Positions 17,838-23,430 of a DNA stretch of 64,000 nucleotides are shown one piece after another. The translations under genes were made by a program, and so were the position numbers. Position 1 is the first letter of the stretch, and every line of letters begins with the position of its first letter. A model generated the notes under the pieces. The model ran no database searches and had not been told where the DNA came from. It saw nothing but the letters and a program-made list of their open reading frames with translations. The stretch comes from Trueperaceae bacterium. Its GTDB lineage: Bacteria; Deinococcota; Deinococci; Deinococcales; Trueperaceae. The stretch covers positions 14,532-78,531 of the forward strand of contig JBBDRK010000069.1 in assembly GCA_040905465.1 (NCBI GenBank). The letters are read 5' to 3'.

Positions 17838-19217
17838 GTGGACGTCCTGGTTCAGCTCGCGTACATCGCCGCTTCGGTCCTGTTCATCTACGGCCTCAAG
17901 ATGCTGGGAAGGGCGCACACTGCGCGGCGCGGCAACCTCGTTTCGGCGGCCGGCATGCTCCTTGCGGTGGTGGTGACGCTGCTCCAGGGCGGGCTCGATT
18001 ACACCTGGATACTGGTCGGCCTGGTGATCGGCTCGGCCATAGGCCTGGGGGCGGCTCGGCGGGTGCAGATGACCCAGATGCCCGAGATGGTGGCGCTCTT
18101 CAACGGTTCGGGCGGCCTCGCCAGCCTGCTGGTGGGCTGGGCCGAGTATCACAACGCACCCGGGGCGATTCCACCGGTTACCGGCGTGGCGATATTCTTC
18201 GCGGTGCTGATCGGCGCTATCGCCTTCACCGGCAGCGTCGTTGCGTTCGGCAAGCTCTCGGAACGGATTCCGGGTCGTCCTATTCAGTTCCCCGGGCAGC
18301 AGATAGTGAATGCCGGGCTGGTAGCGGCGGCGCTCGTGCTGGGCGCTCTTTACCTGGTAGCGCCCGAAGCGTCCTACCCGATCTTCCTGGCGATAATCGC
18401 GATCTCGCTCGCCCTGGGTGTGCTGGCCGTCATCCCGATCGGCGGCGCCGACATGCCGATAGTGGTGTCGCTCCTCAACTCCTACTCCGGCCTGGCGGCG
18501 AGTGCCGCCGGATTCGTGATCGGCAACAACGTCCTCATCGTCGCCGGCTCGCTGGTGGGAGCCAGCGGGCTGATCCTGACGCAGATCATGTGCAAGAGCA
18601 TGAACCGCTCGCTGGCCAACGTGCTGTTCAGCGGCTTCGGCGCAGTGAGCATCTCCGAGTCGCGTGAGGTCGAGGGCGAGGTACAGCCGTTGTCGGCGGA
18701 GGACGCCTATTTCATCCTGGAAGCGGCCCGCAGCGTGCTGTTCGTGCCCGGTTACGGCATGGCGGTGGCCCAGGCGCAGCACGCGGTGCGCGAGCTGGCC
18801 GACCTGCTAGAGGCGGCCGGCGCCGAAGTGCGTTACGCCATCCACCCGGTCGCCGGGCGCATGCCGGGGCACATGAACGTACTGCTGGCCGAGGCGAACG
18901 TGCCGTATGAGCAACTGGTGGAGCCCGAGGACGTCAATCCGACGATGGCCACCGTAGACGTGGCGGTAGTCATCGGCGCAAACGACGTGGTGAATCCGGC
19001 GGCCCGCGAGGACAAGGGCTCGCCGCTCTACGGGATGCCGATCATCAACGTCGACGAGGCGCGCACCGTTTTCGTGCTCAAGCGCAGCATGAAGCCCGGA
19101 TTCTCGGGCGTGGAGAACGAGCTCTTCTACAAGCCGAACACGCGCATGCTGTTCGGCGACGCCAAGGCGACGCTGTCGACCCTGGTGACCGAGTTCAAGG
19201 ACGCGGTGGCTGCCTGA
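17838..19217 (+). CDS. pntB: NAD(P) transhydrogenase subunit beta
   Basis: IGGADMP, PGYGMAVAQAQH, HPVAGRMPGHMN and GANDVVNP motifs. Confidence 0.96.
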   Translation: MDVLVQLAYIAASVLFIYGLKMLGRAHTARRGNLVSAAGMLLAVVVTLLQGGLDYTWILVGLVIGSAIGLGAARRVQMTQMPEMVALFNGSGGLASLLVGWAEYHNAPGAIPPVTGVAIFFAVLIGAIAFTGSVVAFGKLSERIPGRPIQFPGQQIVNAGLVAAALVLGALYLVAPEASYPIFLAIIAISLALGVLAVIPIGGADMPIVVSLLNSYSGLAASAAGFVIGNNVLIVAGSLVGASGLILTQIMCKSMNRSLANVLFSGFGAVSISESREVEGEVQPLSAEDAYFILEAARSVLFVPGYGMAVAQAQHAVRELADLLEAAGAEVRYAIHPVAGRMPGHMNVLLAEANVPYEQLVEPEDVNPTMATVDVAVVIGANDVVNPAAREDKGSPLYGMPIINVDEARTVFVLKRSMKPGFSGVENELFYKPNTRMLFGDAKATLSTLVTEFKDAVAA

Positions 19218-19265
19218 GGAACCGACAGGAGCCTCTCGAGCGAGCTGCAGGAAGCGTCGAGCCGG

Positions 19266-20450
19266 CTATACCGGCAAGAGCAGGCCGGTAACGTACATGA
19301 TTGCCAGTCCGGAGGCGAATCCCCCCAAGGTCGCCGCTGAGAAACCCCGGCTATCGTTGGGCACGAACTTGCGCGCCAGGTAGGCTCCCAACTCGACCAT
19401 CACCTGGAGGATGGCGCCGGCTCCGATGCCCAGGAACAGTGCCGCCCAGTGGGGGGCGAAAGCGAACGCTCCGATCCAGGTCCCGGCCACGGCAGGCAGG
19501 CCGGCCAGCGCGGCCAGACCCACGAACGCCAGCAGCGGCGCTCGCTGCCTGGTGAGCGTCGCGGCAATTCCGATTCCCTCGGTGAGGTTGTGGAGGGTGA
19601 AGCCGATGACGAGGAAGGAGCCGAGCGCGGCTTGGCCGATGGCGAAGGCCGCGCCGATCGCCAGGCCCTCACCCAGGTTGTGCAGGCCGATGCCGAGAGC
19701 CAGGAACCAGGCGAGCGCCAGCCCGGCGGGCGCGGCGCCGTGCCGGCGGCCGACTGCCACCAGGATGAGGAACGACAGGGCGGCGGCCAGCCACACCGTC
19801 GCGCTTGCCTGGAATGCGCCGGCAGCGCCGGCTGCGAGCTCCAGCCCTTCCTCGAGGGTGTCGACAAGCAGGAAGGCGAGCAGTCCGATGGTGAGCGCCA
19901 GCAGGAAGTGAACGCCACGCCGTCCCGCGGTTCTGAGCCAGGGGTAGAAGAGCAGGCCCAGGGCAACCGGCACGACTCCGACGTAGATTCCCAGGAGGGC
20001 GTAGGCCAGGACCCTGGCGAAGGTCGGTTGCGGCGTAGCGGTCGCCACCTCGATCTCGTGTTCGAAGGTTGCGCCGGTGCTGCTGAGCACGGTGATGAAG
20101 TGAGCTTCGTCCTGCACCCAGGGATAGGGGATGTGCAGCGCGGCGGTGGCCAGCCGGCCGAGCCGCCCCGGCGGGTCCTGGCTGAACTGCCAGAAGGCGC
20201 CGTCTACCTGTACCTGGGCGATGCTCAGCGGCTCTGATCCGTCGGCTCGCACCCACAGGGTGATGCCGGAGTCGTCGAGCCTGGTGCGCTCGACGGTCAA
20301 CCGCTCGACCGGTGGTGCCGAAACGCCGAGCGGTGCCAGCGGGTCGGTAGCCAGGAACAAGCTCAGCAGGCCGGCCAGGAGCACGAGCGGAACCAGCGCC
20401 CAGAGGATATCGAGGCGTCTGGCGCCTCCGACTGCCGCGTCGCTGCTCAT
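19266..20450 (-). CDS. ZIP (ZupT/GufA)-family metal transporter with N-terminal extracytoplasmic domain
   Basis: HNLGEGLAIG and HNLTEGIGI metal-site helices; ATGA overlap with the upstream oxidase. Confidence 0.85.
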   Translation of the reverse strand: MSSDAAVGGARRLDILWALVPLVLLAGLLSLFLATDPLAPLGVSAPPVERLTVERTRLDDSGITLWVRADGSEPLSIAQVQVDGAFWQFSQDPPGRLGRLATAALHIPYPWVQDEAHFITVLSSTGATFEHEIEVATATPQPTFARVLAYALLGIYVGVVPVALGLLFYPWLRTAGRRGVHFLLALTIGLLAFLLVDTLEEGLELAAGAAGAFQASATVWLAAALSFLILVAVGRRHGAAPAGLALAWFLALGIGLHNLGEGLAIGAAFAIGQAALGSFLVIGFTLHNLTEGIGIAATLTRQRAPLLAFVGLAALAGLPAVAGTWIGAFAFAPHWAALFLGIGAGAILQVMVELGAYLARKFVPNDSRGFSAATLGGFASGLAIMYVTGLLLPV

Positions 20451-21556
20451 TCCATCACCTCGAAGAAGCTCATCCAGCCCAGTTCAGGGAATTCGGACTG
20501 ATGGGCGTGGAACATGTACGACCCTGGTTCGAAGCCGGCGAACGATATCTCCAGGATCCCGCGCTGCGCCTGACACTGCATGATCGTGTCCACCGTAGTG
20601 CTGGTCGGCTGGAGAGTGGTGCCGTGGTCGTAGTAATCGAAGAAGTTGCCGTGCAGGTGAAATGAGTTGACCGGGTCGAACTCGGTGAGGTTACTGAGGT
20701 ACACCCGGACCGGCCGATCCCGGGCCACCGGGATCGGCTTGTGGGAATATGCGTGCGCCACCGTGTTCACCGCGTACACCTCGTTCTCCTCGTCGAAGTT
20801 GGTGTCGAAGCCGTTCATCACCATCACCATCTCCTGCCAGCGACGGTTCGCGGCCGACCCCAGCAGACGGCTTTCCGCCACATCCGCCGCCTCCGGATGC
20901 TTCGCGGGATCGGGATCGATGATGAAGGAGCCGTACAGCCCCTTGTGGATGTGCCGTTTCAGCGGAATCGCGTGGCAGTGGTAGAGGTGCGTTCCGAAAG
21001 GAAACGCGTCGAACTCGTACACCGTGCTCTGGCCGGGCGCTATCATGCCGGCGCCGACGCCCGGTACGCCGTCCATGCGTGCCGAGTGGATTCCGTGGAA
21101 GTGGATCGTGTGCGGATGCGAGCCGCCGTTGACGAAGGTGACCCGGACTCGGTCGCCCTCGGTGACCCGCAACGTGGGTCCGGGAACCCTGCCGTTGTAG
21201 GTCCAGGCCGGGAAGAACAAACCGGGTGCGATCTCTATCTCCTTGTCGATCGCGGTCAGCTGGAACTCTCGGAGGGTCTGGCCGTTTTCCAGGATCGAGA
21301 TCCGGCCGGTGTCCCAGTCGGTCAGCAGGGTGTGCGGGTCGAAGCCGTTCCGTTCGTGGTCCACCTCGCCCACCGTCGTCATCGCCCCGTGGGCGTCCAT
21401 CCCATGCGCATCCGTTCCGTGCGTATTGCCGCCTGCAGCCGGTGTCTCGGCTTGGCCGGCGACGAACGGCCGTGCGATCTGGCTCAGCAGCAGGCCGGCC
21501 CCTCCCAGCAGTCCGTTTCTCAGCAGTGCGCGACGCAACGGATTGATCGGTTTCAT
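20447..21556 (-). CDS. Tat-exported two-domain multicopper oxidase
   Basis: Twin-Arg signal (LRRALL); HPHTIHFH, YHCH..RHIHKGL, SFHLHG and FHAH copper motifs; 369 aa. Confidence 0.88.
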   Translation of the reverse strand: MKPINPLRRALLRNGLLGGAGLLLSQIARPFVAGQAETPAAGGNTHGTDAHGMDAHGAMTTVGEVDHERNGFDPHTLLTDWDTGRISILENGQTLREFQLTAIDKEIEIAPGLFFPAWTYNGRVPGPTLRVTEGDRVRVTFVNGGSHPHTIHFHGIHSARMDGVPGVGAGMIAPGQSTVYEFDAFPFGTHLYHCHAIPLKRHIHKGLYGSFIIDPDPAKHPEAADVAESRLLGSAANRRWQEMVMVMNGFDTNFDEENEVYAVNTVAHAYSHKPIPVARDRPVRVYLSNLTEFDPVNSFHLHGNFFDYYDHGTTLQPTSTTVDTIMQCQAQRGILEISFAGFEPGSYMFHAHQSEFPELGWMSFFEVME

Positions 21557-21674
21557 TCGCCGTGCCTGCCCGATTCTCCCACGATTACGACCTCCTCTGC
21601 CGTCGGCGTTGCCGCCCCAGGCTCATATGGCGACCGGCGTCGATGAGGCGGGAACGCTAATGCCGCTGAGATGG

Positions 21675-21692
21675 AATTAGCCATACCTAATT
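21675..21692. promoter_or_regulatory. DtxR/MntR-type operator palindrome AATTAG-CCATAC-CTAATT
   Basis: Minus strand reads TTAGGTATGGCTAA; overlaps the predicted +1 of the oxidase promoter. Confidence 0.65.
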
Positions 21693-21695
21693 AAG

Positions 21696-21724
21696 AGTCT
21701 AGGTAGGGCCTCTTTGCTTGTCAA
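21696..21724 (-). promoter_or_regulatory. Sigma70-type promoter TTGACA-N17-TAGACT for the oxidase/ZIP operon
   Basis: Exact -35 at 21724-21719, 17-nt spacer, -10 at 21701-21696. Confidence 0.75.
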
Positions 21725-21932
21725 GGGTTCCGGGATGCGGCGACTCGACGACTTTGCCACCACCGGCGGCTGCGCAACGGCGCTTCCGCACCGCTCACTG
21801 CCCGCTGGACCGTCCTGAATAGCGTCCGCCGCACCATTGTCGTCAAGGCGCGGATGAAAGCATGGTTGAGTTGCCGGCCGTCCCCTGCAGGGCACCCACA
21901 TAGGTCGACGGTCCTCGTGGGGCAACGGCGGT

Positions 21933-21980
21933 TCGAGGGGGACGCGGATCGAAGGGGACGGGGGTCGAAGGGGTCGTAGT
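21933..21980 (+). repeat. 3 x 16-bp G-rich imperfect tandem repeat (TCGARGGGG core)
   Basis: TCGA recurs at 21933, 21949 and 21965. Confidence 0.7.
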
Positions 21981-23430
21981 GACGAACCGGAAGTCTGGGC
22001 ACGAGCAGCAGCGAGGTCCCGCCGAGATGACGCGGGCGACGCGCCAGCCATGGTTGTGGACCAACTTCCTCAACATCGGCCTCGGGATCTGGTTGATTAC
22101 CGCCCCGTTCACCTTCGGTTACCTCGATCCGGCGTCGGTGGGCGACGGTGTCCTGAGGATCACGGCCGAGCGCGAGCTGCCCTCGGTTGCCGTGCGCGGT
22201 GCGGCGATGGCCCGGAGCGATCTGGTCAGCGGTGTACTCATCGTGCTTCTCTCCGCGATCGCGGTGATACCCAGGGCGCGGCTGGACTTCGTGGGGCGTT
22301 GGGGGACCTGCTTCGTCGGCATCTGGCTCGGGTTCGCGCCGCTCCTGTTTTGGTCGCCGAGCCCGGCGGCGTTCGTAAGCGACACCCTCATCGGCGTGCT
22401 GGTCATCACCTTTTCGATTCTCGTGCCGATGATGCCCGGCATGGCGCATCACACGATCATGCAGACGCCGGGACCGGTGGTTCCCAGCGGCTGGACCTAC
22501 AACCCCTCGTCATGGCTGCAACGGGCGCCGATAATAACGCTGGGACTTGTCGGCTGGTTCATCTCGCGCTATCTGGCGGCCTATCAACTCGGCTACATCG
22601 ACAACGTCTGGGACCCGCTCTTCGGTGACAGCACGATGCGGATCCTCGACTCGGAAGTCTCGCGCGCCTGGCCGGTCTCGGATGCCGGATTCGGAGCCTT
22701 CGCGTACACCTTCGAGGTGCTCATGGGCTTCATGGGCGGGACAAGCCGCTGGCGAACGATGCCGTGGATGGTGACCTTCTTCGGAATCCTGGTGATACCC
22801 CTGGGGATCGTGAGCATCGGGCTGGTGATCCTTCAACCGGTGGCGGTCGGGACCTGGTGCACCCTCTGCCTGGTGACGGCACTCGCCATGCTGGTGATGA
22901 TTCCCCTCGCCGTGGACGAAGTGGTGGCGATGATCCAGTTCCTGGAGCGCATGCGACGTCGAGGAAAGTCGCTCTGGCACACATTTTGGGTCGGAGACAC
23001 GCTCGAGCACGCAGCCAACGAGGACCGGCGAACCCCGCCTTACGGCTCGGGTCTCGCGCAACTCGTACCCGCCATGCTGTGGGGAGTAAACGTCCCTCGG
23101 TCCCTGCTGGCGTCGGCGACAGTGGGAGCCTGGCTGATGGCTGCGCCCGCCGTAGCGGGAAGCGGGGGCGCCGCCGCCAACAGCGATCATCTGACAGGTG
23201 CGCTGGTCGTGACGTTCGCGGTCATAGCGATGGCGGAGGCCACCCGGGCGGTGCGGTACGTGAACGTGCCGGCCGGAGCCTGGATTGTCGCCGCACCTTG
23301 GCTCCTGGGGGGTTCGACCATGGGTGCCAGCATCAACGGCCTTCTGGTCGGAGTGGCCGTCATCCTCCTCAGTCTGCCCAAAGGCGCTGTCCGGGACCGG
23401 TACGCCGGCTGGCAGCGCTACATCGTTTAG
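21979..23430 (+). CDS. VKOR-like membrane protein with SPW-type repeats
   Basis: [26 protein letters not shown] and GAWIVAAPW repeats around a VKOR-like core with WCTLC. Start uncertain (21979 or about 22027). Confidence 0.8.

Follow-up and report, generated by a model that had tools for sequence, protein, structure and literature searches.

The analysis concerns a 64,000-nucleotide (nt) stretch of DNA from a Trueperaceae bacterium (Deinococcota; GenBank assembly GCA_040905465.1, contig JBBDRK010000069.1, positions 14,532 to 78,531), which in its entirety is called the window below. On the minus strand of the window lies an operon of two genes, the first encoding a two-domain multicopper oxidase (MCO) and the second a permease with the fold of the ZIP transporters. 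A preliminary description of this DNA, made from the sequence alone, had stated that the two genes are coupled by an ATGA junction, and this is correct: the stop codon of the MCO gene and the start codon of the permease gene overlap as ATGA (TCAT at 20447-20450 of the plus strand). The locus is composed of the following features (lengths of proteins in amino acids, aa; NTD, extra N-terminal domain of the permease):

19266..20450, minus strand: ZIP-fold permease, 394 aa (Pfam, BbZIP alignment, AlphaFold [AF2] model, Foldseek)
19269..20012, minus strand: ZIP core, residues 147-394, with LHNLGEG (H257, N258, E261) and LHNLTEG (H287, N288, E291)
20013..20345, minus strand: NTD beta-sandwich, 111 aa, residues 36-146 (model, fold comparison, conservation)
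20346..20432, minus strand: extra N-terminal transmembrane helix, residues 7-35 (AF2 model, presumed topology)
20447..21556, minus strand: type-C two-domain MCO, 369 aa, with a Tat-like N-terminus (Pfam, NCBIfam and PDB matches, alignment of 73 orthologues)
21557..21689, minus strand: putative 5' leader of about 130 nt, placed from the promoter position, if transcription starts inside the operator box
21675..21692, read on the plus strand: operator palindrome AATTAGCCATACCTAATT (AATTAG-N6-CTAATT), 18 bp, arms of 6 bp, spacer of 6 bp
21696..21701, minus strand: -10 hexamer TAGACT, 17-nt spacer from the -35 hexamer (consensus scan)
21699..21708, plus-strand coordinates: half-site CTAGGTAGGG, which partly repeats the left half of the box in inverse orientation and overlaps the -10 hexamer
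21719..21724, minus strand: -35 hexamer TTGACA (consensus scan)

The MCO consists of only two cupredoxin domains, which match the Pfam families Cu-oxidase_3 (residues 116-216) and Cu-oxidase_2 (residues 258-367), and its best relatives in the PDB are 288-348 aa long. As had been read from the sequence in the preliminary description, domain 1 contains the ligand motif HCH..H..L (H193-C194-H195...H202...L207), and domain 2 has H350-A351-H352 without the cysteine. The copper ligands were assigned from motif position and their conservation was taken from an alignment of 73 orthologues. All eight histidines of the trinuclear cluster (H152/H154, H193/H195, H300/H302, H350/H352) are invariant (73/73), as are H149, C194, H202 and H204, and the axial position of the type-1 copper site (residue 207) is occupied by leucine in 59 sequences and by methionine in 14. 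In the consulted part of PMC13151041, type C comprises those two-domain MCOs (2dMCOs) in which only the N-terminal domain has a type-1 copper site. With type-1 ligands confined to domain 1 and all cluster histidines kept, the window MCO is, by its sequence, a type-C 2dMCO, as the first reading had held. Three copies folded together reached a predicted local distance difference test (pLDDT) value of 93-94, which is no measure of assembly into the homotrimer, with the cluster between protomers, that characterises the class. Among solved chains, 7rab/7rac come closest (E 1.1e-175 over residues 51-369), followed by 3gdc (E 4.6e-106); the structures 7RAB/7RAC ('multicopper oxidase') and 3GDC, the latter presumably from Arthrobacter sp. 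FB24, are solved members of the same clade, and our literature search found no paper naming 7RAB together with multicopper oxidase. The N-terminus carries a twin-arginine stretch (LRRALL), and reading of the sequences gave RR-x-LL in three relatives from other loci (L009, L010 and L013); this Tat-like feature suggests export by the twin-arginine translocation (Tat) pathway. The mature protein contains 9 methionines in 309 residues.

Some of these matches could also point to a copper nitrite reductase (NirK), or the enzyme could be a laccase with organic substrates, the link with metal transport being incidental. NirK entries are found among the PDB matches of the MCO (9cck at E 1.6e-38 and many at 1e-23), and the NCBIfam model of NirK, TIGR02376, matches it at E 7e-28. 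We consider this explanation highly improbable, as the TIGR02376 match reaches 97.9 bits against a cut-off of 296.3, which leaves the protein outside NirK, and as the eight cluster histidines are present in 73 of the 73 orthologues, NirK being devoid of a trinuclear cluster. The protein also falls far under the cut-offs of the NCBIfam CopA and laccase models. Moreover, that the MCO is strictly paired with a permease for metals, under the apparent control of a metal sensor (see below), argues for a metal substrate.

The AF2 model of the permease, built on 80 sequences (pLDDT 89.7), contains a helix at residues 7-35, eight strands within residues 51-133 and a helical core at residues 144-390. 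A Foldseek search with this model returned, at E <= 0.001, ten BbZIP chains only (best E 1.5e-6, target TM-score 0.64-0.69, about 250 columns), and phmmer also matched the permease to BbZIP (E 1.7e-5, residues 148-385); judged by the model, the core has the ZIP fold. By sequence the resemblance to ZIPs is weak, the match to the ZupT model NF003243 giving 34 bits versus 252. The permease shares with BbZIP of Bordetella bronchiseptica (5tsa, 7z6m) the core fold and the HNxxEG motif of transmembrane helix 4 (TM4), but the identity is only 24-26%, the motif of TM5 is HNLTEG instead of QDVPEG, and the extra helix and the outside domain are present in the window protein. The motifs LHNLGEG (TM4) and LHNLTEG (TM5) are invariant among the relatives. 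Metal sites were assigned by comparison with BbZIP residues, and the counterparts of the first site (H257, E261, H287 and E291) are kept and invariant.

The extracytoplasmic domain of about 100 aa that had been attributed to the permease was recovered in the model, where it is formed by the 111-aa NTD beyond the extra helix, with a presumed topology. Folded alone, the NTD (residues 36-146) reached a pLDDT of 92. In fold it comes closest to membrane-anchored beta-sandwiches found in archaeal FlaF, FlaG, archaellins and pilins, the best match being 4p94_A (VIA Z 11.5, root-mean-square deviation 1.6 over 88 residues; best Foldseek E 1.1e-3). Two other candidates were not adopted: a CopC-like fold gave weak matches (TM-score 0.35-0.38), and a PCuAC-type chaperone fold gave a Z of 7.6, in a range that is common for the method. 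Within the NTD, D83 is invariant and Q79, W87, E115 and H117 are conserved at 96-99%; the domain is free of Met and Cys.

Whether the pair is conserved, a point raised in the preliminary description, was answered by a neighbourhood survey. A scan with the permease, using one genome per species, yielded 252 relatives, and 80 loci were retained. In 78 of these the MCO gene is located directly upstream of the ZIP gene on the same strand, and the two misses (L047 and L083) lack DNA on the upstream side. Among the carriers are Trueperaceae and other Deinococcota, cyanobacteria, Halomonas, sphingomonads, rhizobia, Chloroflexota, Brevibacillus and Paenibacillus. A scan of 201 Deinococcota genomes with the MCO matched 59 of them at E <= 1e-20, and the best 30 places were kept, one of which (L105) is the window itself; at the next 19 best (L106-L124, E <= 2e-122) the ZIP gene lies downstream of the MCO gene in every case (19/19).

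The survey also reached, through locus L021, a family of ammonia-oxidising archaea, in which 37 of 41 genomes match the ZIP protein. About 32 of these archaeal ZIPs are of full length, NTD included, with 36-42% identity, and the MCO gene is directly upstream in eight of the nine archaeal loci, the ninth being without upstream DNA; the archaeal MCOs are 44-51% identical to that of the window. A metagenome-assembled genome labelled Nitrosotenuis contains two pairs. The one on contig C91 (G001:C91; L097, the same place as L021) is 59-65% identical to the window pair and the other, on contig C23, 39-56%; the C91 pair was either acquired by recent transfer or sits on a bacterial contig that was binned wrongly. 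The distance matrices of MCO and ZIP correlate with r = 0.85 over 73 pairs, a value that none of 999 permutations reached. This shows that the two genes are inherited as a unit; it does not show that their products bind.

Binding is suggested by structure prediction. Three copies of the MCO (residues 76-369) and one NTD, each with its own alignment, were predicted as a complex, which scored 0.82, 0.77 and 0.82 in separate runs, the best of three controls being 0.00; of 157 solved complexes 116, and of 215 mismatched pairs 2, attain the score mark that we used, counts that are approximate for the present case of 3+1 copies with separate alignments. The runs share at least 89% of their contacts, and the pLDDT of the partner is at least 79. 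The NTD is placed between two MCO protomers, with a predicted interface formed by NTD residues 78-87 and 110-128 (including D83, E115 and H117) and, on the MCO side, by H147-P148, residues 197-201 (the C194-H202 loop), residues 252-259 (the acidic FDTNFDEENE) and residues 355-360. Columns of the NTD within the interface are more conserved than the remainder (0.75 vs 0.58). The conserved Asp/Glu/His patch of the NTD is thus predicted to dock against the type-1 copper loop of the MCO. We know of no solved complex of an MCO placed on a ZIP NTD.

The two proteins could instead act in one pathway or regulon with no contact, the NTD binding the cell envelope or another protein. FlaF, FlaG and archaellin, its nearest folds, are envelope-associated proteins, and co-inheritance alone would explain the correlation of the two trees. 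This we hold to be quite improbable, because the complex scored up to 0.82 against 0.00 for the best control, because the invariant residues of the NTD fall within the predicted interface, and because at all loci examined with upstream DNA the NTD-bearing ZIP is preceded by an MCO. The shorter ZIPs of the archaeal genomes match residues 245-392 only.

Control of the operon was examined at its promoter. The element TTGACA-N17-TAGACT, already noted in the preliminary description, is the sole promoter-like site that the consensus scan found in 19000-22100; it lies on the minus strand and agrees at 10 of 12 positions, and shuffled sequences average 0.4 sites. The palindrome described over +1 is present as well, with an exact extent (21675-21692) slightly off what a reader might count. 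Its core, TTAGGTATGGCTAA (TTAG-N6-CTAA), occupies plus-strand positions 21677-21690 (21690..21677 of the minus strand) and begins 5 nt after the -10 hexamer, so that the operator covers +1. The box had been quoted as TTAGG-N4-CCTAA; the DtxR/MntR type stands, while the actual letters, TTAGc-CATA-CCTAA, are one mismatch away from the quoted form. The related half-site reported near 21699-21712 is real as a resemblance: at 21699-21708, CTAGGTAGGG, read in the inverse direction, shares 8 of 10 positions with TTAGGTATGG, the left half of the box. At the equivalent place the relative locus L009 has GGCCCTA(C/T)CT too. MerR-type activation was rejected for this promoter, given its 17-nt spacer and the absence of a MerR gene nearby, and an Rfam search of 19000-22200 for a riboswitch in the leader gave zero matches at E <= 1.

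The form of the operator is that bound by DR2539, the manganese sensor of Deinococcus radiodurans (8PVT). The operator crystallised with DR2539, from the dr1709/mntH promoter, is ATTTTAGTCGCGCCTAAAAT, i.e. TTAG-N6-CTAA with A/T flanks, in the consulted part of bioRxiv 10.1101/2024.02.12.579695; the window operator has the same form and A/T flanks, but the six central bases differ (GTATGG vs TCGCGC). In the 3.53-Mb genome the exact 14-mer TTAGGTATGGCTAA occurs twice, at the MCO-ZIP promoter and at the promoter of an ABC importer on contig C15, both of the TTGACA-N17 type; the second copy overlaps the -10 hexamer of TTGACA-N17-TAACTT. A search with a relaxed box revealed a third promoter, TTGACA-N17-TATAGT followed after 5 nt by TTAGACATGTCTAT, in front of a gene for a 228-aa DtxR-family protein on contig C51. 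The ATG inside this box is probably the start codon of the regulator gene, which by its sequence is apparently autoregulated. The best solved relatives of the C51 regulator are 5zr4 (E 8e-51), DR2539 itself (8pvt, E 1.1e-41), ScaR and SloR, all above IdeR and DtxR. The genome encodes two full-length DtxR-family proteins, this one and one of 229 aa on contig C43, with Fe_dep_repress, Fe_dep_repr_C and FeoA domains, and one Fur-family protein. The remaining genomic TTAG-N6-CTAA sites, on contigs C6 and C16, lie after an aldehyde dehydrogenase gene and before a TctC-like gene, have no promoter geometry and were dismissed as chance occurrences.

The importer on contig C15 has a binding protein closest to Treponema TroA (E 4.8e-70), with the motifs DPH, DPHVW, TAHDAF and FSDAMG kept; the His-His-Glu-Asp (PsaA) type was ruled out, as alignment with TroA identifies TAHDAF as part of a His-His-His-Asp site. 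A second binding protein, of the ZnuA type with an acidic/His-rich loop, is encoded on contig C35, so that another system probably supplies zinc. A search for NRAMP genes in the genome, which is 95% complete, found none. The targets differ between the two systems: DR2539 acts on mntH, which the window genome appears to lack, and the boxes described here stand before the MCO-ZIP operon, the TroA-type importer and the regulator's own gene. From these findings we infer that the importer and the MCO-ZIP operon belong to a manganese (or Mn/Fe) regulon.

The upstream motif was also surveyed in relatives, and an exact TTAG-N6-CTAA box was found at all 19 Deinococcota loci, in 12 of them within 260 nt upstream of the MCO gene and in the other seven at or before an upstream DtxR-family gene of the same strand. 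The boxes of three relatives are TTAGGTATGACTAA (L009), TTAGTTATGCCTAA (L010) and TTAGATATGCCTAA (L013), located 5 nt after the -10 hexamer in L009 and L010 and 6 nt after it in L013. The operons of L010 and L013 begin with an orthologue of the C51 regulator gene (E 1e-88). A DtxR-family gene lies beside the pair in 12 of the 19 Deinococcota loci, and a DtxR/MntR-family gene occurs within 4 kb of it in 24 of the 80 loci, across many phyla. In operons that start with dtxR (L010, L013, L107, L110 and L111) the ATG within the box appears to start the regulator, in which case the mRNA would be leaderless and the operator would overlap the start. Recognition of the box as a DtxR/MntR-type operator thus holds up: it has the form of the DR2539 operator, a DR2539-like regulator is encoded in the genome, and regulator genes adjoin the pair in relatives. 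Assignment of the window operator to the DR2539 type, with a repressor-type function, is therefore supported at the level of sequence.

We consider it fairly probable that the MCO-ZIP operon encodes a physically coupled oxidase-ZIP uptake unit repressed by a Mn/Fe sensor. The gene anatomy, the conservation of the pair, the shared operator and the presence of the regulator were computed, and the docking is a prediction of the model; the direction of transport, the metal and the role of oxidation are proposed from them. A DR2539-type Mn sensor would repress MCO-ZIP, the TroA-type importer and, apparently, its own gene, and scarcity of Mn(II), possibly of Fe(II), would derepress the MCO-ZIP operon. 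The MCO would then be exported by Tat and assemble into the trimer usual for 2dMCOs, which would dock on the outward-facing beta-sandwich of the ZIP protein, with the Asp83/Glu115/His117/Gln79 patch facing the loop of type-1 copper ligands. Metal ions reaching the ZIP entrance would be met there by the one-electron oxidase, and a divalent ion would then cross via the core of the permease (His257/Glu261/His287/Glu291). Four features favour Mn(II) or Fe(II) over copper: the ligands Asp, Glu and His are hard, Met- and Cys-rich motifs are absent, the sensor is of the Mn type, and a TroA-type importer shares the regulation.

Two variants of this uptake unit may be envisaged. In one, the ZIP imports Mn(II) and the MCO clears its entrance of the oxidisable competitors Fe(II) and Cu(I); we regard this as possible, though short of probable. 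In the other, which by analogy with Fet3/Ftr1 would have iron oxidised and then imported, the likelihood is lower, and a good share of the probability goes to neither variant. ZIP proteins carry divalent ions, and the gate model is for this reason slightly preferred over oxidation followed by import. A more far-reaching proposal is tentative: the MCO trimer and the ZIP NTD may build a joint metal site next to the type-1 copper, at which the redox state decides on entry into the ZIP, either because competitors are removed and a promiscuous ZIP becomes selective for Mn or because the ion is oxidised before it is handed over. The pair would then be the first oxidase-gated ZIP, spread horizontally from Deinococcota to cyanobacteria, proteobacteria, Firmicutes and ammonia-oxidising archaea.

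Several points weigh against the proposed uptake unit. For a family of divalent-ion carriers, an oxidase makes an unexpected partner. The permease scores 24.7 bits with Pfam PF02535, below the cut-off of 35.1 and over residues 245-387 only, and the counterparts of the second metal site are N258 and N288 (Asp in BbZIP) and an alanine in place of BbZIP Glu240, which makes a second metal site in the permease doubtful. The complex score is the model's own confidence. The exact TTAG-N6-CTAA motif is not enriched in the genome (4 found vs about 10 expected from base composition). TroA-type binding proteins take Zn besides Mn, and DR2539 is called a dual Mn(II)/Fe(II) repressor in the title of a publication; the sensed metal is consequently not fixed. 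To these are added the neighbouring genes at many loci and a published expression study in archaea, each of which bears on another explanation.

Within 4 kb of the pair, 32 of the 80 loci carry genes for MerR (17), CDF (9), P1B-ATPase (8), DUF305 (10) or HlyD/CusB-like (4) proteins; five of these 32 carry a DtxR-family gene too, and in 29 of the 80 loci both kinds of neighbour are absent (neighbours were named with Pfam for the first 150 of 271 open reading frames [ORFs] and the remainder by phmmer with representatives). Such neighbours fit metal stress better than metal scarcity. Integrase and transposase genes are moreover found near the pair in L017 and L010. The MCO could accordingly serve in defence, detoxifying periplasmic Cu(I) or Fe(II) in the manner of CueO, with the ZIP-like protein as an accessory of a resistance island and not an importer for times of scarcity. 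We judge this improbable for several reasons. The window pair has no metal-resistance neighbours, its flanks being pntB and a VKOR-SPW gene; an operator for a holo-repressor over +1 means expression at low metal; DtxR-family genes stand beside the pair in 24 of 80 loci and in 12 of 19 Deinococcota loci; and known ZIPs import. In cyanobacteria (L022, L024-L028, L030 and L031) the pair is surrounded by genes for DUF305, MerR, a thioredoxin-like protein of 91 aa, MerF, HlyD/CusB-like and ChrB proteins, a context that is a metal-resistance island, unlike that of the window.

Archaeal MCO1 with an adjacent ZIP has reportedly been described by Kerou et al. (2016). The combination 'MCO1+ZIP' is tabulated as a genomic trait of ammonia-oxidising archaea in the consulted part of Daebeler et al. 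2018 (PMC5817080). According to the portion of Reyes et al. 2020 (PMC7785015) that we consulted, both genes of Nitrososphaera viennensis respond to copper limitation with a modest rise (log2 fold change 0.81 and 1.33); oxidation of Cu(I) followed by import of Cu(II) is the function that the authors suggest. The same function, in which the MCO would turn Cu(I) into Cu(II) outside the cell and the ZIP would import the product, could be assumed for the window pair, since the archaeal proteins are homologous over their full length, NTD included, and the MCO is adjacent in eight of nine archaeal loci. Copper acquisition, too, appears to us improbable for the window. The induction in N. viennensis is small, and the same part of PMC7785015 reports conflicting patterns in N. 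maritimus. The operon of the window and of other Deinococcota carries the operator of a Mn-type sensor, shared in the window genome with the TroA-type importer; neither the NTD nor the MCO contains a Met- or Cys-rich copper-handling motif; and making a four-copper enzyme in order to gain copper would be circular under severe shortage. The archaeal system resembles that of the window in the MCO gene directly upstream of a gene for an NTD-bearing ZIP and in the axial leucine of the type-1 site. It differs in that, in the sources consulted, it is presented as an adjacency with a copper-uptake hypothesis, with no regulator, docking domain or bacterial members, whereas the window unit is bacterial and has an operator of a Mn-type DtxR-family regulator.

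Coupling of an oxidase to a permease is textbook knowledge only for iron uptake of the Fet3/Ftr1 type, and in yeast Fet3p and Ftr1p are obligate partners. The proposed window unit is like Fet3p/Ftr1p in having an MCO at the outer face of a metal permease. It is unlike them in that the permease has the ZIP fold and is not a member of the FTR1 family (REXLE motif), in that the MCO is predicted to be a soluble, Tat-exported two-domain trimer and not a membrane-anchored three-domain protein, and in that the contact is predicted to be made through an extra beta-sandwich of the permease. To our knowledge, ZIP transporters have not been described as working with a redox partner. There is nothing unusual in the assignment to families (type-C 2dMCO, ZIP fold, DR2539-type operator), and adjacency of the genes is in print for archaea only. 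The preliminary description had not recognised the module as characterised, which holds for the bacterial pair, the sensor control and the docking domain but not for the archaeal adjacency, printed together with a copper-uptake hypothesis. Our literature search found no paper on a bacterial MCO-ZIP pair, on its control by a Mn sensor or on the docking domain; it covered main texts, and supplements may hold more on MCO1+ZIP. In the consulted part of PMC9240420, ZIP and DtxR genes are listed separately and the pair is not described.

ZIP transporters matter from bacteria to humans, and the strict conservation and wide transfer of the pair, the predicted docking domain and the sensor and operator of Deinococcota make the question of an oxidase-coupled ZIP directly testable. 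If the uptake unit is real, Deinococcota gain a new member of the Mn-homeostasis regulon linked to oxidative-stress resistance. The pair is also a conserved core feature of ammonia-oxidising archaea, and a role in the supply of copper or another metal would bear on nitrification.

Further observations were made around the regulon and the locus. The ABC-3 permease of the TroA-type importer (L089:5010-6152, plus strand, contig C15) is 380 aa long; its Pfam match ends at residue 275, leaving a C-terminal extension of about 100 aa unexplained. Downstream of the C51 regulator gene and on the same strand (L001:3-914, minus) lies an ORF of at least 304 aa with zero Pfam matches, which ends at the locus edge with a CxxCH-like CATCH and may be a further member of the regulon. 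A scan with the IdeR consensus (19-mer, up to 6 mismatches, plus strand only) singled out the C15 site alone, with 4 mismatches. On contig C57, at about 71380-71400, TTAGGCTAACTCTAA, an IdeR-like half-repeat, adjoins a match to the box at 2 mismatches and may be the operator of the second DtxR paralogue, encoded on contig C43. Finally, the gene divergent from the MCO-ZIP promoter (21979-23430, plus strand) encodes a 483-aa protein in which a VKOR domain (PF07884) is fused to SPW repeats (PF03779), and a VKOR gene is likewise present upstream of the MCO-ZIP pair in the cyanobacterial locus L029.

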